The notes: generated by a model not told the origin, from the sequence alone. Positions 41,110 through 58,340 are shown, counted from the first letter of the stretch. The stretch: DNA of 64,000 nucleotides from Acidimicrobiia bacterium (GCA_015488325.1 WFOA01000010.1:15945-79944); one strand, 5' to 3'. Translations and numbers: made by a program.

Positions 41110-42201
41110 GTGAAGACCCGCCTGCGCATCCTGGCAGCCGTGTTCGCCCTGACCGCGGCAGCGTGCGGCGGTGGCACACCCGCCGCCACCGACCCGGCCG
41201 CCCCGGCCGACGACACCACCTCCCCACCTGCGTCGGGGCCCCAGATCGCGCCGGCGTCGTTCCAGTACCACTACGACGACGTCGTCGAATACGCGTTGAC
41301 CCTCGACCAGACCCTGACGATGCGCGCCGACGGCGACGCCTCGGGTTTCGGCGACGGCCGGTACGAGCTGCCCGTCGAGATGGAAGCCGATGTGCGGGCG
41401 GACCTGACGCTGCGCTACGAGACGAGTCCCGGTCCCGACCCGGGCACCACCACCGTCCGCCTCACCTCCGAGGTGACGAACCTGGTCGTCGAAGGGACGA
41501 TCAACGGCGAGCCGGCGGCCGACACCGACATGGCCCAGCTCGGGCCGACCACCCTGCCACCGGTGGACGTCACCGTCATCGTGGACGAACGGGGCAACGT
41601 GGTGGAGATCGAGAGCTCCGGCGAAGATCTCGGAGCCCTCTTCGGCGGGCTCGGGAGCCTCGAGAACCTCGGCACCTCCCGGCTCGGCCGCCCCGTCGGC
41701 CCGGCCTTCCCCGAAGAGCCGGTGGGGGTGGGCGACACCTGGACGGAGACCACCGAGACGGAAGGCCCCGAAGGGCCCATCGTCACCCGGGCCACCCACA
41801 CCGTCGTCGGCACCGACGTCGTCGCCGGGCGGGACGTGCTCGTCGTCGAGAGCGTCTACGAGACCGACGGGTTCTCGTTCGACTTCACCGACTTCCTCCG
41901 AGGGTTCCTCGAAGGCTTCAGCGACGCCGCCGGCGAGGCCGGGGCACCCGACGAGGGGGAGCTCCAAGACATGCTCGAACAGCTCGTGTTCCGCATCGAC
42001 GTGGCGCCGACGACCAGCACCGTGACCTCCTGGTTCGATCCCGAACGGGGCCTCGTCGTCGAGGCCGACGGCAACGACGACACCGGAATGGCGATGCAGT
42101 TCCAGGGCCCCAACGAGGAGACGGGGGCGATGGAACGCCTCGACGTGGACATGTCGATCACCCAGTCGGTCTCCTACCGCCTCCTCGGCCCGGGCGCCTG
42201 A
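41110..42201 (+). CDS. Putative secreted lipoprotein, function unknown
   Basis: GTG start with GAGAGGGGA upstream. Signal peptide VKTRLRILAAVFALTAAACGGG (lipobox-like LTAAAC), then an acidic, Thr/Gly-rich domain of about 340 aa. Confidence 0.6.
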   Translation: MKTRLRILAAVFALTAAACGGGTPAATDPAAPADDTTSPPASGPQIAPASFQYHYDDVVEYALTLDQTLTMRADGDASGFGDGRYELPVEMEADVRADLTLRYETSPGPDPGTTTVRLTSEVTNLVVEGTINGEPAADTDMAQLGPTTLPPVDVTVIVDERGNVVEIESSGEDLGALFGGLGSLENLGTSRLGRPVGPAFPEEPVGVGDTWTETTETEGPEGPIVTRATHTVVGTDVVAGRDVLVVESVYETDGFSFDFTDFLRGFLEGFSDAAGEAGAPDEGELQDMLEQLVFRIDVAPTTSTVTSWFDPERGLVVEADGNDDTGMAMQFQGPNEETGAMERLDVDMSITQSVSYRLLGPGA

Positions 42202-42202
42202 G

Positions 42203-42229
42203 CGCGTCGACCTCGCAAGGGTCGACGCG
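42203..42229 (+). terminator. GC-rich hairpin immediately after the lipoprotein stop (stem cgcgtcgac / gtcgacgcg, 9-nt loop)
   Basis: 9-bp perfect stem seen in the sequence. No clear U-tract (followed by gcgcctgcattt), so the intrinsic-terminator call is tentative. Confidence 0.4.
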
Positions 42230-42238
42230 GCGCCTGCA

Positions 42239-42264
42239 TTTCCACTATCACGACCGTGGAATTT
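42239..42264. promoter_or_regulatory. Inverted repeat TTTCCAC-N10-GTGGAAT upstream of sufC(1)-sufS-sufU
   Basis: 6-bp perfect core arms TTCCAC/GTGGAA with partial flanking matches, located 12-37 nt upstream of the sufC GTG. Confidence 0.4.
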
Positions 42265-42275
42265 AGGCTGGGGCC

Positions 42276-43037
42276 GTGCGCACCGAGACCCCCCTCCTCC
42301 AGATCGAGAACCTCCACGCCGGGGTCGATGACGTCGAGATCCTCAAGGGCGTCGATCTCACGGTCGAACGCGGCCGCATCCACGTGCTGATGGGTCCCAA
42401 CGGCTCCGGCAAGTCCACCCTCGCCAACGTCCTCATGGGTCACCCCTCCTACGAGGTGACCGAAGGTCGCATCCTCTTCGACGGCGACGACGTCACCGAG
42501 ATGGCCCCGGACGAACGGGCACGGCGCGGCATGTTCCTCGCCTTCCAATACCCCGAAGCCATCCCCGGGGTCTCGGTGATCCAGTTCCTGCGCCAAGCCC
42601 TCTCCAACCGCCACGGCATCGACTACACGGTGCTGGAGCTGCGGCTCAAGGTGATGGACGCGATGAGAGAGCTGGGGATGGACTCCAGCTTCGCCGACCG
42701 CTACCTCAACGAGGGATTCAGCGGCGGTGAGCGGAAACGCAACGAGGTCCTGCAGATGGCGATCCTCGAGCCGACCCTCGCCATCTTGGACGAGACCGAC
42801 TCCGGTCTCGACATCGACGCCCTCAAGACCGTCGCCGAGGGGATCGACAAGCTCCGCCACCCGGACCGTGGTTTCCTCATCATCACCCACTACCAGCGGC
42901 TGTTGGACTACGTCACCCCCGACGACGTCCACGTCTTCATGGACGGCCGGGTCGTCGAGACCGGCGGCCCCGAGCTGGCGAAGCGACTCGAAGAGGAAGG
43001 GTACGAGGCCTTCCGCCGAACCGAGGTCCCCTCATGA
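42276..43037 (+). CDS. sufC: Fe-S cluster assembly ATPase SufC (copy 1)
   Basis: [10 protein letters not shown] Walker A, FLAFQYP, LNEGFSGGERKRNEVLQM signature, [17 protein letters not shown] start. Confidence 0.9.
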   Translation: MRTETPLLQIENLHAGVDDVEILKGVDLTVERGRIHVLMGPNGSGKSTLANVLMGHPSYEVTEGRILFDGDDVTEMAPDERARRGMFLAFQYPEAIPGVSVIQFLRQALSNRHGIDYTVLELRLKVMDAMRELGMDSSFADRYLNEGFSGGERKRNEVLQMAILEPTLAILDETDSGLDIDALKTVAEGIDKLRHPDRGFLIITHYQRLLDYVTPDDVHVFMDGRVVETGGPELAKRLEEEGYEAFRRTEVPS

Positions 43038-44263
43038 GCGGTCTCGAGCACCTCCGGGCAGATTTCCCGGTGCTCCAACGGGAGATCGGGGGCAAGCCGG
43101 TGCATTTCCTCGACTCCGCCGCCAGCTCCCAGAAGCCGACGAGCGTCCTGGAAGCGATGGACGACTTCTACCGGTGCTGTTACGCCAACGTCCACCGGGG
43201 GGCGTACGCCCTGTCGGTGGAGTCGACCGAACGGTACGAGGCGGCCCGGAGCAGGGTCGCCTCGTTCATCAACGCCTCCGATCCGACCCAGGTGGCCTTC
43301 GCCCGAGGTGCCACCAGTGCGCTGAACCTCATCGCCCACGGCTGGGGTGGCGAACACCTCCGCCCCGGTGATCGGGTGCTGCTCACCGAGATGGAACACC
43401 ACGCCAACCTGGTGCCTTGGCAGATGGTCGCCGCCCGTACGGGAGCCCGCCTCGATTTCGTCCCCCTCACCGACGACTACCGGCTCGACCTGGAGGCGTT
43501 GGAGCAGAAGCTGGACGACGACGTGGCCGTCGTCGGCGTGACCGGGATGTCGAACGTCCTCGGCACCATCCCCCCGATCCCCCGGATCGCCGAGGCGGCC
43601 CGGACCGTCGGTGCTCTCCTGGTCGTGGACGGAGCCCAGCTCGTACCCCACCAACCCGTCGACGTCCAGACCCTCGGAGCCGACTTCCTCGTCTTCTCGG
43701 CCCACAAGATGCTGGGTCCGACCGGCATCGGGGCCCTGTGGGGTCGCCCCGAACGTCTCGAGGAGATGGAACCCTACGAAGGGGGCGGGGAGATGATCGC
43801 CGACGTCCAGCTCCACACCTCGACCTGGGCGGCGATCCCCCACCGTTTCGAGGCGGGGACACCGCCGATCGCCGAAGCCGTTGGTTTCGCCGCCGCGGTC
43901 GACTACCTCGACAAGGTGGGGATGGACCAGGTCGCCGCCCACGACGCCGACCTCACCGCCTACGCCCTCCAGCTCCTCGCCGAGATCCCCCACGTCACCG
44001 TGTACGGACCCGCCGACGTCGACGCCCGGGGAGGGGTGATCTCCTTCACGATGGCGGACGTCCACCCCCACGACCTGGCCACGATCCTCGACCAGCAGGG
44101 CGTGTCGGTGCGGGCGGGACATCACTGTGCCAAGCCCCTGATGCGCCGTCTCTGCGTGCCCGCCACCGCCCGGGCCTCCTTCTACGTGTACAACACCCGG
44201 ACCGACGTGGACGCCCTGGTCGAGGCCCTGGGGGTCGCATCTCGGATCTTCGGGGTCGGGTGA
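43034..44263 (+). CDS. sufS: Cysteine desulfurase SufS
   Basis: Class II aminotransferase V: PLP lysine region SAHKMLGPTGIGAL and catalytic Cys loop RAGHHCAKPLM; ATGA overlap with sufC. Confidence 0.9.
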   Translation: MSGLEHLRADFPVLQREIGGKPVHFLDSAASSQKPTSVLEAMDDFYRCCYANVHRGAYALSVESTERYEAARSRVASFINASDPTQVAFARGATSALNLIAHGWGGEHLRPGDRVLLTEMEHHANLVPWQMVAARTGARLDFVPLTDDYRLDLEALEQKLDDDVAVVGVTGMSNVLGTIPPIPRIAEAARTVGALLVVDGAQLVPHQPVDVQTLGADFLVFSAHKMLGPTGIGALWGRPERLEEMEPYEGGGEMIADVQLHTSTWAAIPHRFEAGTPPIAEAVGFAAAVDYLDKVGMDQVAAHDADLTAYALQLLAEIPHVTVYGPADVDARGGVISFTMADVHPHDLATILDQQGVSVRAGHHCAKPLMRRLCVPATARASFYVYNTRTDVDALVEALGVASRIFGVG

Positions 44264-44274
44264 GGGAGGCGGAG

Positions 44275-44730
44275 ATGTCACTCGAAGAGCTGTATCGAGA
44301 GGTCATCCTCGACCACTACCGCAACCCGCGTCATCGCAAACCCCTCGACCGGGCCGACGCCCACGCCGAAGGCGTCAACCCGCTGTGCGGCGACGAGGTG
44401 ACGGTCGAACTCGCCGTCACCGACGGGAGGATCAGCGACGTCGCCGCCATCGGCCAGGGATGTTCGATCAGCCAGTCCTCGGCTTCGATGATGACCGACG
44501 CGATCCTCGGCAAGACCGTCGAAGAGGTGCGGGACCTCATCCAACGGTTCAAGGCCATGATGGACATCGACCACGAAGCCGACCTGGGTCTCGACCCGGA
44601 TCGTCCGGGGGCGGTGTTGGGGGACCTGGAAGCCCTCCAGGGCGTGCGCCGCTACCCGGTCCGGATCAAGTGCGCCAACCTCCCCTGGACCACCCTCGCC
44701 CAGGCTCTCGACCAGCTCTCCGCCTCTTAG
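44275..44730 (+). CDS. sufU: SUF-system NifU/IscU-like scaffold SufU
   Basis: MSLEELYREVILDHYRNPRHRKPL...NPLCGDEVTV...GQGCSISQSSASMM. GAGGGAGG upstream of the ATG. Confidence 0.85.
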   Translation: MSLEELYREVILDHYRNPRHRKPLDRADAHAEGVNPLCGDEVTVELAVTDGRISDVAAIGQGCSISQSSASMMTDAILGKTVEEVRDLIQRFKAMMDIDHEADLGLDPDRPGAVLGDLEALQGVRRYPVRIKCANLPWTTLAQALDQLSAS

Positions 44731-44816
44731 GCTCTTCTTGACCTCCTGCTGATGCGCCCCTGAGTCGCATCCCGGCACGATGTCCACAGAACCGAGGGAT
44801 CAGTAGGAGGTCTCAC

Positions 44817-45692
44817 ATGGAACGAAAGATCTGGACCACGGCGGCGGCGCTCACCGTCGTTCTCGCCGTGACCGGCGTCGCCTGGGCAGGGCTGCCCCGC
44901 GCCGCCGAGACGAGCACCACCGTGACCGTGGAGAACGAGCTGGTGGCCCCGGCAGCCGACGCCGGCACCGTCACCCTCCGGAAAGTCGCCGCCGGCCTCG
45001 AGGTCGTGTCGGTGAGCCCGGCCGACGGCTGGGAGTACACCGTGAAACGTGCCGCCGGCCGGGAGGTCGAAGTCGACTTCCGAGCGATGGACGGGACGGT
45101 CGAGTTCGAGGCCGAGATCGACAACGGCCAGGTTCGCATCAAGGTGAAGGTCCGCGTGGACGCCGGTGCCTCCTCCACGACGACCGTCGATTCCACGTCC
45201 TCGACGGTGGACAGCACCTCCACCTCGGTGGCCGCCGGCCCCTCCACCACCGAGGCGGTGACGTCGACCACCATCGACGACAGCCCGTCCACCACGGTCG
45301 ACGATACGTCGCCGACCACCATCGACGACGACCGCACCACCTCGACCACGGTGTACGACGACGACGATGACGACGACCACACCACCTCGACCACGGTGTA
45401 CGACGACGATGACGACGACCGCACCACCTCGACCACGGTGGCGCAGGGCGATCCGGCCGACTTCGGCACCAAGGTCTACGACGTCGACGGCATCGGCACC
45501 GTCACCGTGGAACGGGACGCCGACGGCCTGACCCTCATCGCCGTCGTCTCCAACCCCGACTGGACGATCAACGTCGAGAAGGCCGGTCCGAAAGAGATCG
45601 AGATCGAGTTCAGGAACGGAGAGCTCGAGGTCAAGTTCGAAGCCGAGCTCGAGTACGGGGAGCTCCGGATCAAGATCGAGCGGGGTTCCTGA
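44817..45692 (+). CDS. Secreted protein with two PepSY-like beta domains separated by a Ser/Thr/Asp-rich low-complexity linker
   Basis: GGAGG 7 nt upstream. Signal peptide MERKIWTTAAALTVVLAVTGVAWA. N-terminal and C-terminal domains of about 80 aa each share the pattern ...VEVDFRAMDGTVEFEAEIDNGQVRIKVKV / ...EIEIEFRNGELEVKFEAELEYGELRIKIE. The PepSY assignment is by pattern only. Confidence 0.6.
   Translation: MERKIWTTAAALTVVLAVTGVAWAGLPRAAETSTTVTVENELVAPAADAGTVTLRKVAAGLEVVSVSPADGWEYTVKRAAGREVEVDFRAMDGTVEFEAEIDNGQVRIKVKVRVDAGASSTTTVDSTSSTVDSTSTSVAAGPSTTEAVTSTTIDDSPSTTVDDTSPTTIDDDRTTSTTVYDDDDDDDHTTSTTVYDDDDDDRTTSTTVAQGDPADFGTKVYDVDGIGTVTVERDADGLTLIAVVSNPDWTINVEKAGPKEIEIEFRNGELEVKFEAELEYGELRIKIERGS
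45334..45441 (+). repeat. Intragenic tandem repeat (about 42-45 bp unit, about 2.4 copies) encoding RTTSTTVYDDDDDDD-type peptide
   Basis: accacctcgaccacggtgtacgacgacgacgatgacgacgacc repeated nearly exactly. Confidence 0.7.
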
Positions 45693-45696
45693 CCGG

Positions 45697-46974
45697 TCAA
45701 TCCTTCCCGAACACCACCCGGAGAACCGCCCCGCCCTCGGGGCGGTTCTCCGCGTCGAGGTGGCCGCCCGTCCGCGCGGCGGTACGGGCCACGATGTCGA
45801 GTCCGAGACCCGTCGACCCGGCCCCGCTCTCCCCCCGGCGCAGGGGATCGACCCCGTCGGGGAACCCGGGTCCCTCATCGGCGACTTCCAGGACGGCACC
45901 ACCGGCGCCTCTATCGACCTTCACCGTGAACCCGGTCCCCGGAGGGGTGTGGGCGAAGACGTTGCCGACGAGGGCGTCGACGGCGGCTGCGACGTCGCCC
46001 GGAGGGAGCGGCACCGGCGTGGGATCGTCGGTGATCTTCACCTCCAGGGCGCGGTCCTGGTCTTCGGCGGCGACCGCCCAGAAGGCGATCCGGTCTCGGA
46101 CCACCGTCCCCAGATCGCAGGAGGCGGGCCGGTCGTCGGGCCTGGACCGGGCCTCTTCGATGAGCAGGTCGACTTGGCGCTGGAGGCGATCGAGCTGGGC
46201 GAGGAGGGACTCCCGCTCGGGGGATGCTTCGAGCCGCTCGACGCGCAAGCGGAGGGCGGTGAGGGGGGTGCGAAGTCGATGGGAGAGGTCGGCGACCGAT
46301 TCCCGCTCGGCGGCGAGGAGGTCGTCCAACCGCCGTGCGAGCCAGTTGAACGACCGGGCGACCTCCTCGATCTCGACCGGACCTTCCAGGGGAACCCGAA
46401 CCTGCAGATCGCCGGCTCCGAGACGGCGGGCGGCCGTCGCCAGGCGAGTGACGGGACGAACGAGGGACGTTCCCAGTCGGTCGGCCACCAGGACGGCAGC
46501 GACGATCATCCCCAACCCGAGCAGCGCCAAGAACACCCAGGCGGTGGCCACACCCGACCGCAACTGGTCGTCGGTGACGAAGGCCGTGACCACGATCGGG
46601 CCTTCCCGGGTCACCACCGGGAGCGCCACCTGCCAGCCCCCGTCGACCTCGTCGGCCACCGCACGTTGCTCATCGGCGGCGAGGCGGGTCACCGCGCTGG
46701 GCAGGGCGGACCCGATCAACCCTCCGTCGGGGAGGATGACGCTCACTCCGGGAGGTAGGGGCCCGAGGAGGTCGGCGAGGACGTCGACGTCGAGGCGGTC
46801 CACCTGGGCGAGGGCGAGGGCGACGAGGCTCCCCACCTCCTGAATGTCCCGTTCAGCGGCGACCCGGGCTCGGGTCTCCGCCTGGTGGCGGACCAACAGG
46901 GCCAGGGGCACGGTGAAGGCGATGACGACCAGGGACGTCACGGCGGCGGAGACGAGGACGAATCGGCGTCTCAC
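45697..46974 (-). CDS. Two-component sensor histidine kinase (HAMP-HisKA-HATPase)
   Basis: Two TM segments, HAMP, H-box ESVADLSHRLRTPLTAL and G-boxes GTGLGLDIV. GTG start overlaps the response-regulator stop (GTGA). Confidence 0.85.
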   Translation of the reverse strand: MRRRFVLVSAAVTSLVVIAFTVPLALLVRHQAETRARVAAERDIQEVGSLVALALAQVDRLDVDVLADLLGPLPPGVSVILPDGGLIGSALPSAVTRLAADEQRAVADEVDGGWQVALPVVTREGPIVVTAFVTDDQLRSGVATAWVFLALLGLGMIVAAVLVADRLGTSLVRPVTRLATAARRLGAGDLQVRVPLEGPVEIEEVARSFNWLARRLDDLLAAERESVADLSHRLRTPLTALRLRVERLEASPERESLLAQLDRLQRQVDLLIEEARSRPDDRPASCDLGTVVRDRIAFWAVAAEDQDRALEVKITDDPTPVPLPPGDVAAAVDALVGNVFAHTPPGTGFTVKVDRGAGGAVLEVADEGPGFPDGVDPLRRGESGAGSTGLGLDIVARTAARTGGHLDAENRPEGGAVLRVVFGKD

Positions 46975-47654: not shown

Positions 47655-47694
47655 CGGCCCCGAGCATATCGGCCGTGCCACCCCGGAGATCGGA

Positions 47695-47723: not shown

Positions 47724-47757
47724 TTCCGAGTGCGCGGATCTCGGGGAGAATGACGGT

Positions 47758-48405: not shown

Positions 48406-48408
48406 ACC

Positions 48409-49800
48409 TCAGAGGATGCCACCCTCGGTCATCTTCTTGATGTCGAGGGCGGCGTCGACCTCTTCGGCGCTCATCAGCCCCTTCTCGAGGACCACCTCCC
48501 GCACGGTCCGCCCGCTGGCGAATGCCTCTTTCGCCACGGCGGCTCCGGCGTCGTAGCCGATGTGGGGGTTGAGGGCCGTTACCACGATGACGTTTTTCTC
48601 GACGAGTTCACGGGCCCGTTCTTCGTTCGCCTCGATCCCGGTGACACACTTCTCGGCCAGCACCCGCGACGCGTTGCCGAGGATCGTGATCGCCTGCAAC
48701 AGGTTGTGGGCGATCAACGGCATCATCACGTTGAGCTCGAAGTTGCCGTTGGCTCCCCCCCAGGTGATGGCGGCGTCGTTGCCCATCACCTGCGCCGCCA
48801 CCATCATCACCGCCTCGGGGATGACCGGGTTCACCTTGGCGGGCATGATCGACGAGCCGGGTTGGAGTGCCGGAAGCCGGATCTCGCCGATCCCGGTGAC
48901 CGGACCGCTCGACAGCCAGCGGAGGTCGTTGGCGATCTTGAACAGTGACGTGGCGACGGTCTTGAGGGTGCCGGCCGCCTGCACCGTGGCGTCCTTCGCC
49001 GCCTGCGCCTCGAAGTGGTTCGTGGCTTCCCGGAACGGGATCCCGGTCCGCTCGGAGATGACGTCGATCACCTTCGCGGCGAAGCCTTCCGGACAGTTGA
49101 TCCCGGTCCCTACGGCGGTTCCCCCGAGGGGGAGCTCCTCGAGTTCGGGGAGGACCTTCTCGACCCGTTCGATCCCCTTGCGGACCTGGGTGGCGTAGCC
49201 GGAGAACTCCTGGCCGAGGGTGACCGGCGTGGCGTCCATGAGGTGGGTCCGTCCCGACTTCACGACCCGTTCGAACTCCCGGGACTTCTCCTCCAAGGCG
49301 AGGGCCAGCGCCGACAGTCCCGGGATCAGCACTTCCCGCACCTCGGCGGCGGCGGCGACGTGGATCGCCGTGGGGATCACGTCGTTCGACGACTGACCGA
49401 AGTTGACGTGGTCGTTGGGATGTACGAGTTTGGACCCCAGGGCTCCACCCAGGACCTGCGAAGCGCGGTTGGCGATCACCTCGTTGGCGTTGGTGTTCGT
49501 CGACGTCCCCGATCCGGTCTGGAAGATGTCGACCGGGAAGTGCTCGTCGAAGTCGCCCCTCGCCACTTCGGCGGCGGCCTGCTCGATCGCCTTCGCCTTC
49601 TCGGCGTCGACGTACCCTTCGGGTCCTGCGACGGCGGCCACCGCCCCTTTGATGACGCCGAGGGCCCAGATGAACCGACGGGGGAAACGGATCCCCGAGA
49701 TCGGGAAGTTCTCGATCGCCCGTTGCGTCGAAGCTCCGTAGAGGGCGTCGGCCGGGACCCGGACCTCGCCCATCGAGTCTCTCTCGGTGCGGTACTCCAC
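48409..49800 (-). CDS. fumC: Class II fumarate hydratase
   Basis: [11 protein letters not shown] signature, [40 protein letters not shown]. These align better with FumC than with aspartase. GTG start with GAAGGAG 7 nt upstream. Confidence 0.9.
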
Positions 49801-49873
49801 GATGGTGCTCCTTCGTCGACAGCTCCAGCGTACGCCCCGGCCGCCCCGGCCGCGACCGCTGAAAGTCCATCCG

Positions 49874-50674
49874 TCAGAAGTCGAAGGGAGTGTCGGTGAA
49901 GAAGTCCGACGGCCGGCGTTCCGACGGGGTGGGTTCGGGCTGGAGACCGAGACGCTCCCGCAGGCCTTCGTATCCTTCTGCCTCCAGCTCGTCGGCCAGC
50001 TCGGGTCCTCCCGAACACACGATCCTGCCGTCCATCATCACGTGGATCCGGTCGGCCCGCAGGTAGCGGAGGATGCGGGAGTAGTGGGTGATGAGCAGCA
50101 CCCCGAGGTCGGGGCCTCGCATCTCCTCCACGGCGGCCGCCACCTCCCGGACGGCGTCGATGTCGAGTCCGGAGTCGATCTCGTCGAGCAGCGCCGCCTT
50201 CGGACGGAGTACGGCCATCTGGAGGATCTCGGAACGCTTCTTCTCCCCGCCGGAGAGGTCGTCGTTGACCGACCGGTCCAAGAATTCGGTGGCGCCGAGG
50301 CGTTCGGCGAGCTCCCGGGCCCGGGTCAGTGTCGCCTCCGGGTCGGCTCCCCACTCTTCCGCCGCCTCTCGGAGCAGCTCGGACAGTTTCACCCCGGGGA
50401 TCTCCACGGGATACTGGAAGGCCTGCAGGAGCCCCAACCGGGCCCGCTCGTCCACCTCGAGGCCCAACACCTCCGTCCCGTCGAGGAGGGCGGATCCCGA
50501 GACCTCGTAGCCGTCTTTTCCGGTGAGCACATGACAGAGGGTCGACTTGCCCGAACCGTTCGGGCCCATCACGGCGTGGACCTCGCCGAAACCGATGTCG
50601 AGGTCCACGCCACGCAGGATCTCGACGGAACCAACCGAGGCGTGGAGGTCGCGGATCTGGAGGGCGAGGCTCAT
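49874..50674 (-). CDS. sufC: Fe-S cluster assembly ATPase SufC (copy 2) with about 25-aa C-terminal tail
   Basis: [15 protein letters not shown]...[10 protein letters not shown]...LQAFQYP...[17 protein letters not shown] at 50674 overlaps the Rieske gene stop (ATGA). The upstream extension is Arg-rich junk. Confidence 0.9.
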
Positions 50675-50985
50675 GACGGCTCCACGGACAGGTAGACGTC
50701 GCCGTCTTCCACCTTCACCCGGTAGGTGGGCACCGGCCGGGTCGCCGGAAGGGTGAGGGGTTTGCCCGTCTTGAGGTCGAAGACGGCGCCATGGCGGGGA
50801 CATTCGATCTCGTGGTCCACGACCTCTCCTTCGGCGAGGGACGCCTCGGCGTGACTGCATCGATCACCGAGGGCGTAGACGTCGTCTCCGACCCGGACGA
50901 GGGCGATCCGGTGCCCGGGAAGGTCGACCCGCACCGGGGCGCCCGGGACCAGATCGTCCATCGACGTCACCTTCACCCAGCTCAT
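50671..50985 (-). CDS. Rieske [2Fe-2S] domain protein (suf-operon associated ferredoxin-like)
   Basis: CxH...CxxH boxes DRCSHAEASL and ECPRHGAVF; 104 aa; sits between sufD and sufC, as in actinobacterial suf operons. Confidence 0.85.
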   Translation of the reverse strand: MSWVKVTSMDDLVPGAPVRVDLPGHRIALVRVGDDVYALGDRCSHAEASLAEGEVVDHEIECPRHGAVFDLKTGKPLTLPATRPVPTYRVKVEDGDVYLSVEPS

Positions 50986-52247
50986 CCCAACCTCCCTGCG
51001 GCCTGAGCGGCACCGAACCGTTCGTCCACTTCCCGCCGGAGCGGATCGGCCATGGCGTCCGACGGGAGGCGTTCGATGACCTCTTCGAAGAACCCGTGCA
51101 CCAGGAGGCGTTCGGCCCGGTCACGGGAGAGACCCCGGCTCATCAGGTAGTACAGATGTTCGGCGTCGAGGGGCCCGACGCTGGAGCCGTGCCCGCAGAC
51201 CACGTCGTCACAGAGGATCTCGAGGTTGGGGACCGAATGGGCCTTCGCCCCGTCGGAGAGGACCAGGTTGCGGTTGGTCTCGAACGCCGATGTGCGGGCG
51301 GCGGTGGGAGCGATCCGCAACAGACCGGTGAACACCGACTGGGCGTGATCTTCCACCGCGCCTTTGAGGAGGACGTCGGAGCTGGTGGAGCGGCCCACGT
51401 GGTCGATCACCATCCGGTAGTCGAGGACCTGGGTGCCTTCACCGAAGTACAACCCGACGACCTCGGCGGAGCTACCGTCGCCTTCGAGGCGCACCCCGAG
51501 GTCGAGCCGGGCCGTCGACCCCCCGAGGCCCGCCTCCCCGACCCGCAGGGTGGCGTCCCGGGCGAGTCGAGCCCGCTCGTGGGCGACGAGGACGGTGGCG
51601 TCGCCGAGGAGCTGGACGGTGGTGAACCGCAGCCGGGCCCCCTGGGCGACGTCGAGTCCGAGCAGCGGAGCGACGACGGCGTCGACGCCGTCGGGGCTGC
51701 GGTAGACGACCACCACGTTCGCCTCGGCGTTCTCACCGACCTCCACCGTCACTTCCGGGAACGAGATCGTGCCGCCGGCGGTGGCTTGGAGTTCGACCAC
51801 CACCGGACGGACCTCGACCGCACCGGCCGGGACGCCGACGAACACCCCGTCGCCGCCGAAGGCGAACCCGGCGGCGGCGAACTTGTCCACCGAGGGGTCG
51901 ACGAGGGATGGGACCGCTCCCCGCTCCCACCGTTCCGCCCCCCGGCCGATTCGCACGGTGTCCCCACCGTCCACCGACACCGTGTACCCGTCCACGACCA
52001 CGACCCGGCCGGCAGCGTCGCCGATCGCCGACACGAAGGGGCCGGGCTTCAGCGGTTGTCCGGGTTCTTCGGGGAGGGCGAGGGTGTCGAAGTCGACGTC
52101 GAGGTCGACGTATCTCCAGGCCTCGTCGGTGTCGGACGGAGGGGGGATCTCGCGGTAGAGGTCGAAGGCTTCGAGTCGCCGCCGAGCGAGGGGCTCGGGG
52201 GCGTCGCGATTCAGGACCTCGACGGTCGTGGCGTTCAGGGCGAGCAC
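50982..52247 (-). CDS. sufD: Fe-S cluster assembly protein SufD
   Basis: SufBD-family beta-helix C-terminal region (...NLEILCDDVVCGHGSSVGPLDAEHLYYLMSRGL...). GTG start; ATGA overlap with the Rieske gene. Confidence 0.85.
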   Translation of the reverse strand: MLALNATTVEVLNRDAPEPLARRRLEAFDLYREIPPPSDTDEAWRYVDLDVDFDTLALPEEPGQPLKPGPFVSAIGDAAGRVVVVDGYTVSVDGGDTVRIGRGAERWERGAVPSLVDPSVDKFAAAGFAFGGDGVFVGVPAGAVEVRPVVVELQATAGGTISFPEVTVEVGENAEANVVVVYRSPDGVDAVVAPLLGLDVAQGARLRFTTVQLLGDATVLVAHERARLARDATLRVGEAGLGGSTARLDLGVRLEGDGSSAEVVGLYFGEGTQVLDYRMVIDHVGRSTSSDVLLKGAVEDHAQSVFTGLLRIAPTAARTSAFETNRNLVLSDGAKAHSVPNLEILCDDVVCGHGSSVGPLDAEHLYYLMSRGLSRDRAERLLVHGFFEEVIERLPSDAMADPLRREVDERFGAAQAAGRLG

Positions 52248-52287
52248 GGTCTCTCCGCAGGCAGGGACGGCCCGAATCGTATTCTCA

Positions 52288-52977
52288 CTACCGCCGTATT
52301 GGAAATTCGTCGAGCAGCGACCGCGCCCGCTCGAACACGGCGTCGAGCATGGCCTCGGTGAGACGCCCTGTGAAGGTGTTCTGCTGGGACGGATGGTAGG
52401 AGGCGAGGAGGGTGGCGGCCCCCACCCGGACCTCGACCCCGTGGCCGAAGCGGGGACGGGGACGGGGGACCTCCCGCCCCAGGTCGCTCAACACCCGCAG
52501 CACCCCCCGGAAGGCGACACCGCCCAGGGCGACGACCACGGAAGGGTCGAGGAGTTCGAGTTCTTCGGCGAGGAACGGGCGACATGCCGCCTCCTCGGCC
52601 CCGACCAGGCGGTTCTGGGGCGGCGCGCAGCGGGCCACGGCGGTGATCCAGCAGTCGGTGAGCACGAGACCGTCGTCACGGCCGACCGACTCCGGCCGGT
52701 CGGCGAACCCGGCCCGGTGCAGCGCCCGGTACAGCCAGTCGCCGGACCGGTCTCCGGTGAACATGCGCCCCGTACGGTTGGCGCCGTGGGCGGCGGGGGC
52801 GAGGCCCACCACCACCATCCGGGCATCCGGGTCTCCGAATCCGGGTACGGGGCGCCCCCAATAGGTCTCGTCCCGGTAAGCCGCCCGTTTGGTCCGAGCG
52901 ACCTCCTCCCGCCACTGCACCAGACGGGGACATCGCCGGCACTCGACGATCTCGGCTTGGAGGTCGGCGAGCCTCAC
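52288..52977 (-). CDS. Uracil-DNA glycosylase, family 4-like (4Fe-4S UDG)
   Basis: ECRRCPRL...GDPDARMVVVGLAPAAHGANRTGRMFTGDRSGDWL...YHPSQQN motifs. Proposed GTG start at 52977 overlaps the upstream gene stop (GTGA). The track's long N-terminal extension is Arg/Pro-rich junk. Stop coordinate taken from the track (my own reading places it 1 nt lower). Confidence 0.7.
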   Translation of the reverse strand: MRLADLQAEIVECRRCPRLVQWREEVARTKRAAYRDETYWGRPVPGFGDPDARMVVVGLAPAAHGANRTGRMFTGDRSGDWLYRALHRAGFADRPESVGRDDGLVLTDCWITAVARCAPPQNRLVGAEEAACRPFLAEELELLDPSVVVALGGVAFRGVLRVLSDLGREVPRPRPRFGHGVEVRVGAATLLASYHPSQQNTFTGRLTEAMLDAVFERARSLLDEFPIRR

Positions 52978-54500
52978 TCCCGACCCGCCGGATCCAGGGC
53001 CTCCACCGTCACGTTCGACAGTGCGTTCCACAGCATCCATCCGAACCCGAACCCTTCGGCGGCGTCGATCTGTGCTCGGACCTGTTGGGGGTCGTAGCCG
53101 AAATCCTGGAGCCAGGGACGGATGACCGTCCCCGAGTCGAGCCGCTCCACGCCGTCGGCGAGGGCCCGGGAGACCACCTCGGCCGGGTAGTCGTTGGGGT
53201 TGTCGAACCCGAACCACCCGCGGCCGTAGTGGCTCGGGTACAGCATCGGGGAGATCACGTCGACGACTTCGGCGACGGCCGGCCAGAGCTGGCCGATCCC
53301 GCCGTCGTCCAGGGCGGTAGTGGTGAACCCGAACACGTCGGCGGCCACCGCGCATCCGAGGGGATGGAGCTGGTCCCGGGCGCGGCCGAGGAACCCGACG
53401 ATGGTCCGTACACGGGTCTGGGGGTCGGATCCCTCGTCGAACACGGTCGACGGCCCGAAGCCGTCCGGATAACGCACGTAGTCGAACTGGATCTCGTCGA
53501 CGCCCCGGGTACAGGCCTCCCGGGCGATCTGGAGTGCGTAGTCCTGGGCGGCGGGATCGGTGGGGTCGAGGAACCACTGCCCGCCCTTGCGGTACGGGGC
53601 CCCCCGGGCCGTGTCCCACACCGCCATCTCCGGGGCACGGCGGGCGGCGATGGGATCCTGGAAGGTGACGATCCTGGCCACCACGTAGAGGCCGGCGGCG
53701 TCGGCCTGGCGAACCACCTCGTCCAGCGAGTACGGCTCCGCGACGATGGTCCCGAGCCGCAGCGCCGTGGCGACGTTCGAGTCGTACCAGATGAGGCCGT
53801 CGTCGTCTTTCAGGTCGATCATCAGAGCGTTGAGCTCGGTCGTCTCCGCCATGCGGAGGTATTCCTGGCGGCGGGATTCGTCGGCGAGGACCTCACCGCC
53901 GATGTGCACGGCCTTCACCACCCGGGGGACCACTTCGATCTGGCGGAACCCGGGGCCTCCGTCCCAGTCGAAGGCGGTGTTCTCCCATGCCGGGCGCCAG
54001 ACGTCCACCGGCCCCGCCTCCGCTCGCCGCAGCAGGAACCGTCCTGTCTCGTCGGTGACCGTCGAAGCACCACCAGCCGTGATCCGTACCGCCCCCACCG
54101 GCCGGCCTTCGGGGTCACGTACCTCGCCCCGGAGCATCCGGGCCTGGACCCGGAAACGCACCGGCCCGTCGGGACGTCGAGGGATCGACATGGTCCGGGG
54201 CAGGTACCCGGGGGCGTCGAAGGTGAGCTGGGTCCCCGGCGGTCGCCACGCGAGCAGCACGGTTCCCTCCGGGTCGGTCACCCCCAGGGAGTCGCCGTCG
54301 GCCAGGACCTCGACACCGACCACCGGGACTCCCTCCTCGTCTACGACCAGCACGGCGACGTCGGCGCTGCCGGCCGCCACCCGCCATCCGGCGAGTGCCG
54401 CCCACAGGAGGGTGACGAAGAGGAGCAGCCGGAGCTGTCTGGGTCGGGACACCGACGTGGAGGATACCGACCGCCCGGGGGTGCGCACCCCGGCGACCAT
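52974..54500 (-). CDS. Secreted TIM-barrel-like protein, putative glycoside-hydrolase-like (GHL/DUF4015-like)
   Basis: Signal peptide after MVAGVRTPGRSVSSTSVSRPRQLRLLLFVTLLWAALAGWRVAAG, N-terminal beta-rich region, then KAVHIGG...NALMIDLKDDDGLIWYDS...WFLDPTDP...FDYVRYP. The functional assignment is tentative. Start is ATG 54500 or 54515. Confidence 0.55.
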   Translation of the reverse strand: MVAGVRTPGRSVSSTSVSRPRQLRLLLFVTLLWAALAGWRVAAGSADVAVLVVDEEGVPVVGVEVLADGDSLGVTDPEGTVLLAWRPPGTQLTFDAPGYLPRTMSIPRRPDGPVRFRVQARMLRGEVRDPEGRPVGAVRITAGGASTVTDETGRFLLRRAEAGPVDVWRPAWENTAFDWDGGPGFRQIEVVPRVVKAVHIGGEVLADESRRQEYLRMAETTELNALMIDLKDDDGLIWYDSNVATALRLGTIVAEPYSLDEVVRQADAAGLYVVARIVTFQDPIAARRAPEMAVWDTARGAPYRKGGQWFLDPTDPAAQDYALQIAREACTRGVDEIQFDYVRYPDGFGPSTVFDEGSDPQTRVRTIVGFLGRARDQLHPLGCAVAADVFGFTTTALDDGGIGQLWPAVAEVVDVISPMLYPSHYGRGWFGFDNPNDYPAEVVSRALADGVERLDSGTVIRPWLQDFGYDPQQVRAQIDAAEGFGFGWMLWNALSNVTVEALDPAGRE

Positions 54501-54571
54501 CCCAGGATTTTCCATTGTGGTTGTCCGTGGGTGGTGATAGCGTTGCCTTCCAAGGGGACAGAGGTGATGAG

Positions 54572-55504
54572 GTGGCAGAGCACCGCGGGTCCGGTGCATC
54601 GGTGGCGGATGCCGTAGGCCTCTACCTCGACGAGGTGGCGGATCACTATCTGCTCACCGCCGAGGACGAGGTTCGGCTGGCCAGGGCGATCGAACAGGGA
54701 CGACGCGCCCAGAGCCGTCTCGACGGTGACACCGAACTCGATCCCGCCGAACGGGCTCGTCTGGAACAGCTCGTAGAAGAAGGCCACGACGCCAAACTCA
54801 CCTTCATCCGGTGCAACCTGCGGCTCGTCATCTCGATCGCCAAGCGGTACACGGGCCGCGGCCTCGACCTCCTCGACCTCATCCAGGAGGGCAACCTCGG
54901 GTTGATCCGGGCGGTGGAGAAGTTCGACTGGCGGAAAGGCTTCAAGTTCTCCACGTACGCCACCTGGTGGATCCGTCAGGCCATCACCCGGGGACTGGGG
55001 AACAACGCCCGGACGATCCGCCTCCCGGTGCACATGGTCGACGTCGTCCGCACCGTCCACGACACCCACCAGCAGCTCGCCGAAGAGTTCCACCGGGCAC
55101 CGACGGTGGACGAGATCGCCGCCGTCTCCGGGCTCGACCCCGACCGTGTCGAAGCAGCCCTGTCGGCCCCCACCGACACCGTCTCCCTCGACCGGCCCGT
55201 CGGTGACGACGGCGACGCCGAACTCCACGAATTCATCTGCGACGACGACACCCCCGACCCCTTCACCACCGCCGTCGAACGGATGCGGGACGCCGAGATC
55301 CAACGGGCGCTCTCGATGCTCAGCCGGGAAGAGCGGGTCGTCCTCACCCTCCGGTTCGGGCTCGACGGCCGCGACTCGTGGACGCTGTCGGCGGTGGGCA
55401 AGCTGTTGGGCATGACCCGGGAACGGGTCCGCCAGATCGAGAGTCGGGCCCTCGCCAAGCTCCGCCATCCCTCGGCCGCCGTCCAACTGGAGTCGCTCCT
55501 GTAA
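54572..55504 (+). CDS. RNA polymerase sigma-70 family factor (group 1/2-like, SigB-type)
   Basis: Regions 1.2 through 4: DAVGLYLDEVADHYLLTAEDEVRLARAIE, FSTYATWWIRQAITR, LSREERVVLTLRFGLDGRDSWTLSAVGKLLGMTRERVRQIESRALAKLRHP. Start uncertain (GTG 54572 with AGAGGTGA upstream; ATG 54515 would collide with the divergent gene start). Confidence 0.8.
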   Translation: MAEHRGSGASVADAVGLYLDEVADHYLLTAEDEVRLARAIEQGRRAQSRLDGDTELDPAERARLEQLVEEGHDAKLTFIRCNLRLVISIAKRYTGRGLDLLDLIQEGNLGLIRAVEKFDWRKGFKFSTYATWWIRQAITRGLGNNARTIRLPVHMVDVVRTVHDTHQQLAEEFHRAPTVDEIAAVSGLDPDRVEAALSAPTDTVSLDRPVGDDGDAELHEFICDDDTPDPFTTAVERMRDAEIQRALSMLSREERVVLTLRFGLDGRDSWTLSAVGKLLGMTRERVRQIESRALAKLRHPSAAVQLESLL

Positions 55505-55563
55505 CGGCCCTTCGGGGTCGAGACCCTGGCCATCGGCGAACCCTGCTGTAGCCTGACCCTCCG

Positions 55564-55836
55564 ATGGAAGCCATCAGCAGCGAAATCGTCGACGCGTTCA
55601 TCCGGATCGCCGTCGCCGGCGGCATCGGAGGCCTCTTCGGAGGGTTCATCGGAGGTCGGGGGAAGAACCTGATCGGCTCGATCCTGTTGGGAATCATCGG
55701 CGGGATCTCGGCTTCGGCGATCCTCCGGATCGCCGGGGTGCCCGCCATCATGAACGCCGGCGAAGGATTCGGACTGGTCTACGGCTTCGTCGGTGGTTTC
55801 ATCCTGGCGTTCGTCGTGGGAGCCTCCAATCGCTGA
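55564..55836 (+). CDS. GlsB/YeaQ/YmgE-family small membrane protein (transglycosylase-associated family)
   Basis: 90 aa, Gly-zipper rich (AGGIGGLFGGFIGGRGKNLIGSILLGIIGGI). Confidence 0.55.
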   Translation: MEAISSEIVDAFIRIAVAGGIGGLFGGFIGGRGKNLIGSILLGIIGGISASAILRIAGVPAIMNAGEGFGLVYGFVGGFILAFVVGASNR

Positions 55837-55900
55837 CCTGCCCCGCTCCGGAGTCACCAAGCTCGACATCGCCCGGGACTGGCTGCCCCGGTACACGGGT

Positions 55901-56623
55901 ATGCCGGTCGAGGATTTCGGCGACTACATCCTGCTGACGAACTTCGGCTACTACGTGGAGCGGTTCGCCGAGCGTTTCGACTGCCCGATCACCGGCACCG
56001 ACCGCCCCATGCAGGCGGCCACCAACGACGACGGCCTCACCATCGTCAACTTCGGGATCGGCACCGCCAACGCCGCCACGATCATGGACCTGCTCACCGC
56101 CCGCCGGCCCGCCGGGGTCCTGTTCCTCGGCAAATGCGGCGGGCTCAAGCATTCGACCGAGATCGGGCATTTCATCCTCCCGATCGCCGCCATCCGGGGA
56201 GAGGGCACCTCCAACGACTACTTCCCGCCCGAAGTCCCCGCCCTCCCCTCCTTCAAGCTCCACAAGTTCGTCTCCGACCGCATCGTCGCCCGGGGCCTCG
56301 AATACCGCACCGGCGTGGTCTACACGACCAACCGCCGGGTGTGGGAACACGATCAGGAGTTCCTGGCCCGGCTCCGCCGGCTCACCGCGATCGGCATCGA
56401 CATGGAGACCGCCACCCTGTTCATCGTCGGGCACGCCAACCGGATCAGCCGCGGGGCGCTGCTGTTGGTCTCCGACGTGCCCTTTCATCCCCAGGGGATC
56501 AAGACCGAGGAGAGTGACGCGCGGGTCACCGCCCAATGGTCGGACACCCACCTCGACATCGGTATCGAGGCGATGAGCCAGATCGCCCGGGAAGGCGAGC
56601 CGATCAAACACTTCACCTTCTGA
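55901..56623 (+). CDS. Nucleoside phosphorylase family-1 protein (AMP-nucleosidase-like catalytic domain)
   Basis: ...VLFLGKCGGLKHSTEIGHFILP...IGIDMETATLFIVGHANRISRGALLLVSD... Start uncertain (ATG 55901; the track start at 55793 overlaps the previous gene). Confidence 0.55.
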   Translation: MPVEDFGDYILLTNFGYYVERFAERFDCPITGTDRPMQAATNDDGLTIVNFGIGTANAATIMDLLTARRPAGVLFLGKCGGLKHSTEIGHFILPIAAIRGEGTSNDYFPPEVPALPSFKLHKFVSDRIVARGLEYRTGVVYTTNRRVWEHDQEFLARLRRLTAIGIDMETATLFIVGHANRISRGALLLVSDVPFHPQGIKTEESDARVTAQWSDTHLDIGIEAMSQIAREGEPIKHFTF

Positions 56624-56645
56624 GCGGCCCGGTAGAGTCCCCGGG

Positions 56646-56903
56646 GTGTTCGGGTTCCTGTTCTCGCTGGTCGTCGCCGCCTTCGCCGGGTGGCTGGGAG
56701 CCCGTCTGGCGGGCCGTGACGAACCCCTCGGGTGCCTGTCGTCCATCGTGTTGGGGTTCATCGGATCCCTCTTCGGGTCGTGGCTGGCCCGCACCCTCGA
56801 CCTGCCCCTCCTCTGGACGGTCCGGGGCTTCCCGGTGATCTGGGCGGTGGTGGGCGCGGCCCTGTTCGTCGCCCTGCTCAACCTCGTCGGCGGGCGACGC
56901 TGA
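56646..56903 (+). CDS. GlsB/YeaQ/YmgE-family small membrane protein (paralog)
   Basis: 85 aa, two hydrophobic helices with GxxxG repeats; GTG start. Confidence 0.5.
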   Translation: MFGFLFSLVVAAFAGWLGARLAGRDEPLGCLSSIVLGFIGSLFGSWLARTLDLPLLWTVRGFPVIWAVVGAALFVALLNLVGGRR

Positions 56904-56927
56904 ACCCGAAGGCGGTCGGTTCCGACC

Positions 56928-58340
56928 TCAGCCGACGGCGCCGGCCTCCGCCATGTTCAGCTCGATGAGCCGGTTCATCTCGACCGCGTACTCCATCGGG
57001 AGCTCCTTCACGATCGGTTCGATGAACCCGGCCACGATCATCGAGGTCGCCTGGTCTTCGGTGAGGCCGCGACTCATCAGGTAGAAGAGCTGCTCCTCCC
57101 CGACCTTCGAGACGGTCGCCTCGTGGCCGATCTCGGCGTCGTTCTCTTCGATCTCCATGTAGGGGTAGGTGTCCGACCGGCTCTTCTCGTCGAGGATCAG
57201 GGCGTCGCAGCGGACGAAGCTGCGCGAATCCTCGGCGTCCGGCTCGACCCGGACCAGACCCCGGTACCCGGCCCGACCTCCGTCCTTCGAGATCGACTTG
57301 GAGACGATCGTCGACGTGGTGTGGGGGGCGGCATGCACCATCTTCGCCCCGGTGTCCTGGTGTTGGCCTTTCCCGGCGAAGGCGATCGACAGCACTTCGC
57401 CGTGGGCCCCGGGCTCCATGAGCCACACGGCCGGGTATTTCATCGTCAGGCGGGAACCGAGGTTGCCGTCGACCCACTCCATGGTGGCGTCGGCGTAGGC
57501 CATCGCCCGTTTCGTCACGAGGTTGAACACGTTCGACGACCAGTTCTGGATGGTCGAGTAGCGGCAGCGTCCGCCCCGCTTGACGACGATCTCGACGACG
57601 GCGGCGTGGAGAGAGTCGGTCGAGTAGATCGGAGCCGAACACCCTTCGACGTAGTGCACGTAGGCGCCCTCGTCCACGATGATGAGGGTCCGTTCGAACT
57701 GACCCATGTTCTCCGAGTTGATCCGGAAGTAGGCCTGGAGGGGCTGTTCGACGTGGACCCCGGGGGGCACGTAGATGAAGGACCCTCCCGACCAGACCGC
57801 CGAGTTGAGGGCGGCGAACTTGTTGTCGTTGGGCGGGATCACCGTCCCGAAGTACTGGCGAACCAGCTCTTCGTACTCCCGCAGGGCGGTGTCCATGTCG
57901 GTGAACAGCACCCCTTGGGCTTCGAGCTCCTCCCGGTTGCGGTGGTACACCACCTCGGATTCGTATTGGGCGGTCACCCCGGCCAGATATTTCCGTTCCG
58001 CCTCCGGGATCCCGAGCTTCTCGTAGGTCTCTTTGATCTCCTCGGGCACCATGTCCCAGGACTTGGCCTGACCCTCGGTGGGTTTGATGTAGTAGTAGAT
58101 GTCGTCGAAGTCGATGGTGTCGAGGAGCCCACCGCCGCCCCAGGTGGGCATCGGCTTGCGAAGGAAACGCTGATAGGCGCGCAGACGGAAGTCGAGCATC
58201 CAGGCGGGCTCGCCCTTCATGTCCGACATCTGGCGGATGATGTCCTCGGACAGCCCCTTCTGGGGCTTGAAGACGTACTCCTCCTCGGAGTCCTTCCAGC
58301 CCAGCTTGTAGGCACCCAGGTCGATGTCAACGGTTGCCAT
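56928..58340 (-). CDS. sufB: Fe-S cluster assembly protein SufB
   Basis: Highly conserved SufB sequence (…[50 protein letters not shown]...). ATG with GAGGAG 7 nt upstream. Confidence 0.9.

Follow-up and report, generated by a model that had tools for sequence, protein, structure and literature searches.

The SUF system is the essential Fe-S cluster assembly route of Actinomycetota and has been proposed as a drug target in mycobacteria. The canonical actinobacterial genes form one operon in the order sufR-sufB-sufD-(Rieske)-sufC-sufS-sufU-sufT, as in Mycobacterium tuberculosis (Rv1460-1466), Dietzia lutea (L094, order sufR-B-D-C-S-U-T; L numbers denote the loci and contigs compared here) and Kitasatospora of the Streptomycetaceae (L095, order sufR-B-D-Rieske-C-S-U-T). 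To our knowledge, descriptions of the SUF scaffold have always given it the composition SufBC2D, in which both SufC subunits are identical and are encoded in one operon. Here, we describe the suf genes of a 64,000-nt stretch of DNA from an Acidimicrobiia bacterium (GCA_015488325.1 WFOA01000010.1:15945-79944; hereafter, the window), which encodes the same protein types as the canonical operon but has three dispersed suf units, two SufC paralogues, and neither sufR nor sufT linked to them.

In Escherichia coli, suf expression is regulated by Fur, IscR and OxyR. The SufBC2D complex of this organism (PDB 5AWF and 2ZU0) contains two copies of one SufC, and SufE is used rather than SufU. In cyanobacteria, Streptomyces and Mycobacterium, the SufR regulators (COG2345) control a single adjacent operon, with the regulator gene linked to suf, and an A/T-flanked palindrome overlaps the suf promoter; SufR reads the palindrome through its winged helix and the flanking A/T tracts through an AT-hook (bioRxiv 10.64898/2025.12.26.696629). 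In Paenibacillus polymyxa, a second operon, sufC2D2B2, duplicates the whole scaffold set of C, D and B (PMC8038749). The window resembles P. polymyxa in having more than one sufC per genome and differs from it in that only sufC is duplicated and a single system is split.

Every component of the window's system belongs to a known family. With a probability of roughly 0.6, we favor the explanation that one SUF system is encoded by three co-regulated units under an unlinked SufR-family repressor, with SufC1 and SufC2 serving one scaffold.

Three suf units in the window and in related genomes

Gene identities were assigned by NCBIfam and Pfam profile scans, and reading frames by frame-specific analysis of G+C content at third codon positions (GC3). 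The suf genes were located as follows:

42276-43037, plus strand: sufC1, 253 aa, GTG start (TIGR01978, 340 bits; cut-off 212.8)
43034-44263, plus strand: sufS, cysteine desulfurase (TIGR01979, 567 bits; cut-off 475; PF00266, E = 8e-145)
44278-44730, plus strand: sufU, sulfur-transfer protein (TIGR01994, 156 bits; cut-off 92.5)
49874-50674, minus strand: sufC2, 266 aa (TIGR01978, 272 bits; cut-off 212.8)
50671-50985, minus strand: Rieske [2Fe-2S] ferredoxin-like gene (Pfam PF00355, E = 8e-21)
50982-52247, minus strand: sufD (TIGR01981, 242 bits; cut-off 222)
56928-58340, minus strand: sufB (TIGR01980, 729 bits; cut-off 346)

All suf proteins scored above the NCBIfam cut-offs, including the equivalog-level models for SufB, SufD and both SufC proteins, and the GC3 analysis backed the reading frames of the named genes. 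A preliminary description of this DNA had placed the SUF genes at three sites, with sufB directly after gltB, and the profile scans and GC3 frames bore out the coordinates and strands, the spacing downstream of gltB being 71 bp. The true start of sufC2 is probably the ATG at 50674 rather than position 50860, and a gene call on a near-identical contig starts sufU at approximately 44275. Both SufC copies are already annotated by NCBI as 'Fe-S cluster assembly ATPase SufC'.

Aligned with the proteins of E. coli K-12, SufB kept all of R226, N228, C254, Q285, W287, K303, C405 and E434, and SufD kept the histidine matching H360; the cluster-site and sulfur-tunnel residues (C254, Q285, W287, K303, C405 and E434 of SufB and H360 of SufD) are among these. 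SufB is 67% identical to the SufB of both Dietzia and Kitasatospora. The group II cysteine desulfurase gene sufS adjoins sufU, as in the sulfur mobilization of Gram-positive bacteria and of the canonical operon, and the Rieske gene lies between sufD and sufC2, as in Kitasatospora, and is present in 80 of 80 related loci. These features indicate that the region encodes one complete, ordinary, actinobacterial-type SUF machinery, predicted to consist of the SufB and SufD scaffold, the SufC ATPase, SufS and SufU, and a Rieske protein.

Instead of a contiguous sufRBD(Rieske)CSUT operon, the three units span approximately 16 kb on both strands, in DNA with an even G+C content of approximately 70%. 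In agreement with the preliminary description, neither SufR nor SufT was detected by Pfam scans of approximately 34 open reading frames (ORFs) of the window, in precomputed Pfam tables of two stretches (32-53 kb and 57-64 kb) or, for SufR, when the entire window was searched by tblastn with five SufR/COG2345 queries; approximately 12 larger ORFs at 1-33 kb were judged by translation only, and SufT was not included in the tblastn search. An Rfam scan of the window found no RNA family.

The preliminary description took the canonical order as the expectation and raised the question of whether insertions had split the operon. For comparison, SufC2 was scanned against one genome per species, which gave 80 loci, including several complete chromosomes; because nearly all of them are labelled Acidimicrobiia, this is taken to be the class of the window organism. 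The proteins of the window were then mapped onto these loci over ±10 kb around sufC2 (1.29 Mb in total). Essentially every locus covering the region, down to 60% SufC2 identity, had the same layout: (gltB-sufB) ... sigma(-) / DUF4015 / (UDG) / sufD-Rieske-sufC2 ... fumC ... sufU-sufS-sufC1 on the opposite strand, UDG being a uracil-DNA glycosylase family gene. gltB-sufB was located upstream wherever this part was covered, and both SufC copies were present in all sampled genomes with the region covered. The intervening genes vary somewhat and the three suf units are constant; specifically, the extra genes between sufC2, fumC and sufU encode an M42 peptidase and XseA, not regulators. The split, seen in 80 of 80 species-level loci as far as each covers it, is thus the conserved norm rather than a departure, and the sequence comparison indicates that it is ancient and typical of the Acidimicrobiia lineage. 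The preliminary description had also considered that relatives might share the gene order with a sufR just outside the window; the order is indeed shared, but no sufR was found nearby in the 1.29 Mb of the 80 loci. Moreover, in at least two high-GC metagenome contigs (L149 and L161), sufD-Rieske-sufC is convergent with sufU-sufS-sufC1; there, sufC1 is only 60-62% identical and the second SufC does not carry the C-terminal motif described below. The two-SufC design thus reaches lineages that have diverged further than those of the 80 genome loci.

The window stems from a metagenome-assembled contig, and a collapsed duplication or a chimeric contig could mimic both the split and the second sufC. 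However, the exact SufB protein was found on 13 contigs, as was the exact SufC1; the SufB contigs shown came from six samples and a seventh sample appeared among the SufC1 contigs, so the arrangement was assembled independently at least six times, among others on scaffolds (102, 82 and 71 kb) whose gene order is that of the window. The same arrangement in 80 other genomes, the identity of just 53% between the two SufC copies and the uniform GC along the region also speak against an assembly or binning error. This explanation, which the preliminary description had kept in view, is refuted, and its probability is negligible. Since the layout is common to independent assemblies and to 80 relatives, a recent insertion-driven break of the operon was ruled out as well. 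No description of a class-wide split, a stable SufC pair, a SufC2 tail motif or a multi-promoter operator with an extended regulon was found in the full-text literature searched.

A shared operator and its candidate regulator

Alignment of the relatives' regions upstream of sufC1, sufD and sufB revealed a palindrome of 26-28 bp with A/T-tract flanks, ATTTcCcCTA-N6-TAGtGcAAAT (with variants, ATTT-(C/G)C(A/C)CTA-N6-TAG(T/G)(G/T)(C/G)-AAAT), and a position weight matrix (PWM) was built from 89 sites. In the aligned relatives, it reads ATTTCCCCTAy-N4-rTAGTGCAAAT at sufC1, AATTCGCACTAT-N4-ATAGGTGAAAT at sufD and ATTTACACTAC-N4-GTAGTAGAAAT at sufB, in each case just upstream of the start codon of the unit, and the palindromes of sufC1 and sufD are immediately followed by a -10-like TACCAT or TACGAT. 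The window holds three copies:

42237-42264, plus strand: operator copy 1, CATTTCCACTATCACGACCGTGGAATTT, upstream of sufC1 (PWM score 19 bits)
52280-52307, minus strand: operator copy 2, AATTTCCAATACGGCGGTAGTGAGAATA, upstream of sufD (PWM score 28-30 bits, the highest of all window sites)
58372-58399, minus strand: operator copy 3, CCTATACACTATCTGCGTAGTAGAAATT, in the gltB-sufB spacer (PWM score 20 bits)

The candidate operator TTTCCAC-N10-GTGGAAT that the preliminary description had noticed before sufC1 (42241-42264) is the sufC1 copy of this shared element. In the PWM scan, exactly three sites in 64 kb reached 8 bits or more, each directly upstream of a suf unit, and six strand-hits scored 15 bits or more, where Markov simulations gave an expectation of 0.01. 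Across the related loci, 105 sites scored at least 18 bits; 100 were automatically assigned to sufD, sufC1 or sufB, and the remaining five, assigned by position, lie upstream of truncated sufB or sufD matches. Among the related genome loci, 41 have a homologous site upstream of sufC1 and 54-56 have one upstream of sufD; sites before sufB were likewise found in related loci and in two metagenome contigs (L164 and L208). Because a conserved motif precedes every suf unit, the three units are predicted to form one regulon, and the earlier view of a functionally 'fragmented' system did not survive the alignment and the PWM scan.

Downstream of copy 1 in the window, a -10-like TAGGCT precedes the GTG start codon of sufC1 by six nt. 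The spacing of the -10-like hexamer, 6-7 nt before the sufC1 start codon, suggests a leaderless or near-leaderless transcript. Copy 2 is followed by a -10-like TACGAT and overlaps the 3' end of the UDG gene, whose last residues, EFPIRR*, are encoded in the left half-site and whose stop codon is supplied by the TAG in the right one. Terminator-like sites were fewer than in shuffled sequence.

A palindrome with A/T tracts on both sides that overlaps the promoter (ATTT-18 nt-AAAT at three promoters) is the operator architecture of SufR (COG2345) regulons. Like the canonical operon, the window has an A/T-flanked palindromic operator of equal length at the promoter; unlike it, the window repeats the operator at three promoters, with CTA-N6-TAG as the core instead of (C)AAC-N6-GTT(G). 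The sufR promoters of Dietzia lutea (AATAATTC-CGAAAC-GAAAGT-GTTGCG-TAATAT) and Kitasatospora (AATTA-CGCAAC-AATCGT-GTTGTG-AAAAA) share with the window motif (ATTT-CCCCTA-N6-TAGTGC-AAAT) the geometry of an A/T tract, 18-19 nt and a second A/T tract, and differ from it in the core.

All metagenome contigs were searched with ATTYNCMCTANNNNNNTAGKNSAAAT, which gave at least 120 contigs, with 121 motif sites among the matches listed. About 45 of these 121 sites were in low-GC contigs (GC below approximately 0.55) and had no adjacent Fe-S gene recognizable by tblastn; they were treated as chance matches and not as members of a regulon. The operator was found at the following positions:

before sufC1-sufS-sufU: at least 46 high-GC contigs
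before sufD: at least 6 high-GC contigs
before sufB: at least 2 high-GC contigs
in a divergent sufT (DUF59) / sufA-like pair: at least 4 contigs (L103, L116, L137 and L184)
before Nfu: at least 1 contig (L152)
before a Fer4_15 ferredoxin: at least 2 contigs (L150 and L202)
before an FTR1 iron permease: at least 2 contigs (L130 and L197)
before an iron-binding-type ABC substrate-binding protein: at least 4 contigs (L171, L178, L179 and L216)
in a divergent mrp/apbC and COG2345 regulator pair: at least 1 contig (L102, 931-2943)

Since the motif also precedes genes for Fe-S carriers, ferredoxin and iron uptake, the putative regulon would be wider than suf, and the motif appears to mark an Fe-S and iron regulon. 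Such a pattern would fit a regulator of both Fe-S assembly and iron acquisition. On the far side of the site in L171, in divergent orientation, inspection by eye showed an N-terminal fragment that resembles DtxR/IdeR.

Among the matches listed, a SufR-family protein was the only regulator directly attached to the motif. This protein of 247 aa (L102, 931-1674) contains HTH_20 and MetOD1 domains and is 30% identical to M. tuberculosis SufR (E = 5e-13), with most of its length aligned. It keeps the AT-hook GRPAK(I)YR and three cysteines at the cluster-ligand positions, with an apparent Asp where M. tuberculosis SufR has the cluster ligand E195. A copy of the operator lies 21 nt upstream of its gene, so that, as in known SufR regulons, a SufR-family gene stands beside the motif. 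Because the motif shares with SufR (COG2345) sites the geometry of a palindrome between A/T tracts, an unlinked SufR-family [4Fe-4S] repressor is the most likely factor for the three operators of the window, a proposal that is supported rather than proven. Unlike the known SufR regulons, such a regulon would have sites at no fewer than three promoters and a regulator encoded apart from suf, and the related contigs would add Fe-S carrier and iron-uptake genes.

Several observations weigh against this proposal and the explanation built on it. No SufR homologue was found by tblastn of five SufR/COG2345 queries against the window and 86 loci, including the 80 relatives within ±10 kb of sufC2. L102 is an unassigned metagenome contig and may not belong to a split-suf genome. 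The core, CTA-N6-TAG, is not that of the published SufR sites (CAAC-N6-GTTG and ACACT-N5-TGTGA); the half-sites here are C(A/C)CTA-N6-TAG(T/G)G, and the likeness to SufR cores is partial (ACACTA at sufB; CGCAC at sufD compared with CGCAAC). A simple sigma-70 consensus scan returned no promoter match, and the promoter and leaderless assignments come from inspection of -10-like hexamers only. Acidimicrobiia do hold COG2345 genes, including two of Ilumatobacter coccineus, BAN02115 and BAN04159 (supplement of bioRxiv 10.64898/2025.12.26.696629), and their homologues, but the SufR homologues of Ilumatobacter-like genomes adjoin a different, E. coli-like sufBCD cluster. In these Acidimicrobiia (metagenome contigs L089, 1-4639, and L092, 1-4663), a second cluster, fdx-sufB-sufC-sufD-sufT, lies divergent from SufR. 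It resembles the window in being a SUF system of the same class, whereas its proteins are of the E. coli and cyanobacterial kind: SufC is 58-59% identical to E. coli SufC and approximately 50% to either SufC of the window, and SufB is 40% identical to that of the window. The intergenic region of L092 contains a CAAC-N6-cTTG site, and that of L089 only a half-site resembling the operator. No second cluster of this type is present in the window.

The unusual core and the absence of SufR beside any suf unit of the window and the 86 loci would also be expected if the operator were bound by a regulator outside the SufR family (for instance, an Fe-S sensor of the Rrf2/IscR/RirA kind or a different iron regulator) and resembled SufR sites only superficially. 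Genes for iron uptake in the regulon, namely for an FTR1 permease and for an ABC substrate-binding protein of the iron-binding type, are typical of RirA- or Fur-like global iron regulators, and IscR type 2 sites of E. coli also contain a CCC(T/C)T element, which would count in the same direction. We nevertheless regard such a regulator as doubtful: the A/T tracts around 18 nt (6 + 6 + 6) match the sufR promoters of Kitasatospora and Dietzia and the AT-hook model, the operator copy upstream of the SufR-family gene with its AT-hook and cysteine ligands is what autoregulation would predict, and no Rrf2 gene was seen beside any site.

Two SufC paralogues

As the preliminary description had recognized, the two SufC copies are divergent and intact. 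SufC1 and SufC2 are 53% identical, and both keep Walker A (GPNGSGKST), the Q-loop, the signature SGGE(K/R)KR, Walker B in LDE(T/I)DSGLD, and the H-loop (THY), that is, all the motifs of an ABC ATPase. Each is 53-56% identical to the SufC of Dietzia and Kitasatospora, and both match SufC structures strongly, with SufC1 nearer to the reference proteins than SufC2 (313 and 255 bits, respectively, against the Thermus thermophilus SufC structure 2D2E). The functional residues of SufB and SufD and the ATPase motifs of SufC are thus those of E. coli SufBC2D; unlike E. coli SufC, however, SufC2 has an extra C-terminal motif.

In a neighbor-joining tree, a check already proposed in the preliminary description, the C1 and C2 sequences formed separate clades, each with 100% bootstrap support, and these two clades and the canonical actinobacterial SufC grouped together against the E. 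coli-like type with 98%. The branching within the three was close to a trichotomy (48%, 50% and 2%, the last for C1 and C2 as sisters), in a tree containing two canonical actinobacterial sequences only. The duplication of SufC therein appears about as old as the split between the actinobacterial classes. Over 44 genomes, the mean distance was 0.23 for SufC1, 0.38 for SufC2 and 0.58 for SufD, showing that SufC1 evolves more slowly than SufC2 and that both are well conserved.

The C-terminal extension of SufC2 (49874-49950 in the window) consists of a variable linker followed by (R/K)P(S/A)DFFT(D/E)TPFD. Across 120 aligned homologues the motif recurs; within an aligned subset of 60, its T, P and F do not vary, and D, F, F, T and D reach at least 90% conservation. 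In the alignment, it is absent from SufC1, from canonical actinobacterial SufC and from E. coli SufC. In an AlphaFold2 model of the SufC2 monomer, the predicted local distance difference test score was approximately 90 for the core and 37-51 for the tail, which is predicted to be disordered. Since predicted disorder is typical of docking peptides, the tail may be a docking motif for a partner.

In the explanation that we favor, sufC would have duplicated inside an ancestral sufBD(Rieske)CSU operon, which would then have parted between the two sufC copies; sufB would have parted too, and each piece would have kept or gained the site of the regulator. Three lasting transcription units (sufB; sufD-Rieske-sufC2; and sufC1-sufS-sufU) would result, each with its own promoter overlapped by the same palindromic operator, and regulation, in place of linkage, would ensure co-ordinate expression. 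When the Fe-S supply is sufficient, the operators would be bound by a dimeric repressor whose gene lies elsewhere. Both SufC proteins would serve the single SufB-SufD scaffold as a heteromeric ATPase pair that replaces the SufC homodimer, and SufC2 would dock through its conserved C-terminal peptide. The repression, the identity of the regulator, the heteromeric complex and the function of the tail are the parts of this explanation that we infer. To the points against it given above is added that a mirror-tree analysis (partial correlation controlling for FumC and SufS) gave a residual co-variation of SufD of 0.43 with SufC1 and 0.43 with SufC2, an equal result that assigns no partner.

The two proteins could instead belong to separate assemblies, SufC2 acting with SufD and the Rieske protein, and SufC1 with SufB, in a SufB2C2-like complex, or with SufS-SufU, each specialized by step or by clients. 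The linkage of each SufC to a different suf subset in all relatives, the age of the paralogues (51-53% identity, separate clades with full support) and the conserved motif in SufC2 alone would fit such a division, and SufB2C2 scaffolds do exist in minimal SUF/SMS systems (PMC12584684, PMC12442378). We consider it unlikely, because the locus has one SufB and one SufD, which keep the shared cluster-site residues (C405 and E434 of SufB and H360 of SufD), because one operator common to all units implies joint expression, and because SufD co-varies equally with both SufC proteins.

Alternatively, the SufC proteins could be interchangeable or partly redundant isoforms, either of them forming the usual homodimer on SufB-SufD, with the duplicate simply left at the operon breakpoint. 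Comparison of sufD-Rieske-sufC and sufC-sufS-sufU with the canonical sufD-Rieske-sufC-sufS-sufU of Kitasatospora (L095) is in keeping with a tandem duplication followed by a split, and all catalytic motifs are present in both copies. However, redundant duplicates are rarely kept in every lineage over such deep divergence, and both copies were present in every sampled genome covered; SufC2 gained and conserved a motif of its own, and the sister grouping of C1 and C2 received only 2% bootstrap support. Redundancy is accordingly rated as rather improbable, and one scaffold with two specialized ATPase subunits is the favored arrangement.

Neighboring genes and implications

The neighbors of the suf units in the window include the following:

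41110-42201: lipoprotein with a lipobox-like N-terminus (LTAAAC), upstream of sufC1
44817-45692: secreted protein with Ser/Thr/Asp-rich repeats (TTSTTVYDDDDDD)
48409-49800, minus strand: fumC, class II iron-independent fumarase (PF00206 and PF10415)
54515-55504: sigma-70 family factor
58341-62830: gltB, glutamate synthase large subunit, 1472 aa

Downstream of sufC2 are fumC, genes of a two-component system and genes for two secreted proteins specific to the lineage. fumC starts 74 bp downstream of sufC2, and most of the 80 related loci also have it downstream; a terminator scan found no terminator-like site in the spacer, and fumC may be co-transcribed with sufC2. Co-expression of an Fe-S-independent fumarase with an Fe-S stress regulon would make physiological sense, as an inference.

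The interval between sufB and sufD encodes a small membrane protein, a PNP_UDP_1 phosphorylase, a sigma-70 factor, a glycoside hydrolase-like DUF4015 protein and a UDG-family glycosylase. This agrees with the preliminary description except for the two YeaQ-family genes that it had listed there: one small protein gave a borderline Transgly_assoc (YeaQ) match (24.6 bits against a cut-off of 25.3), and the second candidate (55564-55836) was rejected, as it had no Pfam match and its similarity to the first was insignificant in a pairwise comparison. The sigma-70 family factor is full-length (regions 1.2, 2, 3 and 4) and divergent to DUF4015-UDG-sufD, a position kept in approximately 60 of the 80 related loci.

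sufB occupies the usual place of gltD, and no gltD was found near gltB in the window; GltB may be of the ferredoxin-dependent type. The adjacency of gltB and sufB was also observed in relatives L018, L028, L076, L077 and L080. The lipoprotein before sufC1, called unrelated in the preliminary description, was detected among the related loci only in L007 and, weakly, in L047; taking both secreted proteins that flank sufC1-sufS-sufU together, matches were confined to two related loci (L007 and, weakly, L047 or L018). Positions 1-33700 hold a large cluster for the biosynthesis of polysaccharide or cell-envelope glycan, including several GT2 and GT4 glycosyltransferases, a flippase-like membrane protein, dTDP-sugar epimerases, a sulfotransferase, a polysaccharide deacetylase and an ABC exporter.

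For genome annotation, an apparent lack of sufR or sufT and a suf operon that looks broken are normal features of metagenome-assembled genomes of Acidimicrobiia and should not count as signs of incompleteness or misassembly. More tentatively, Acidimicrobiia and some other high-GC lineages might possess a heteromeric SufB-SufC1/SufC2-SufD scaffold on which SufC2 docks through DFFTDTPFD, and an unlinked SufR-family sensor that would act as a global iron and Fe-S regulator (of SufT, SufA, Nfu, Mrp, ferredoxin and iron uptake) rather than as the repressor of a single operon. If the SufC duplication is stable across the class, it would offer a natural system in which to ask whether the SufB-bound and SufD-bound ATPases differ in role. 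If the multi-promoter regulon is real, it would provide a ready regulon map for a SufR-type regulator that reaches past suf to Fe-S carriers and iron uptake.

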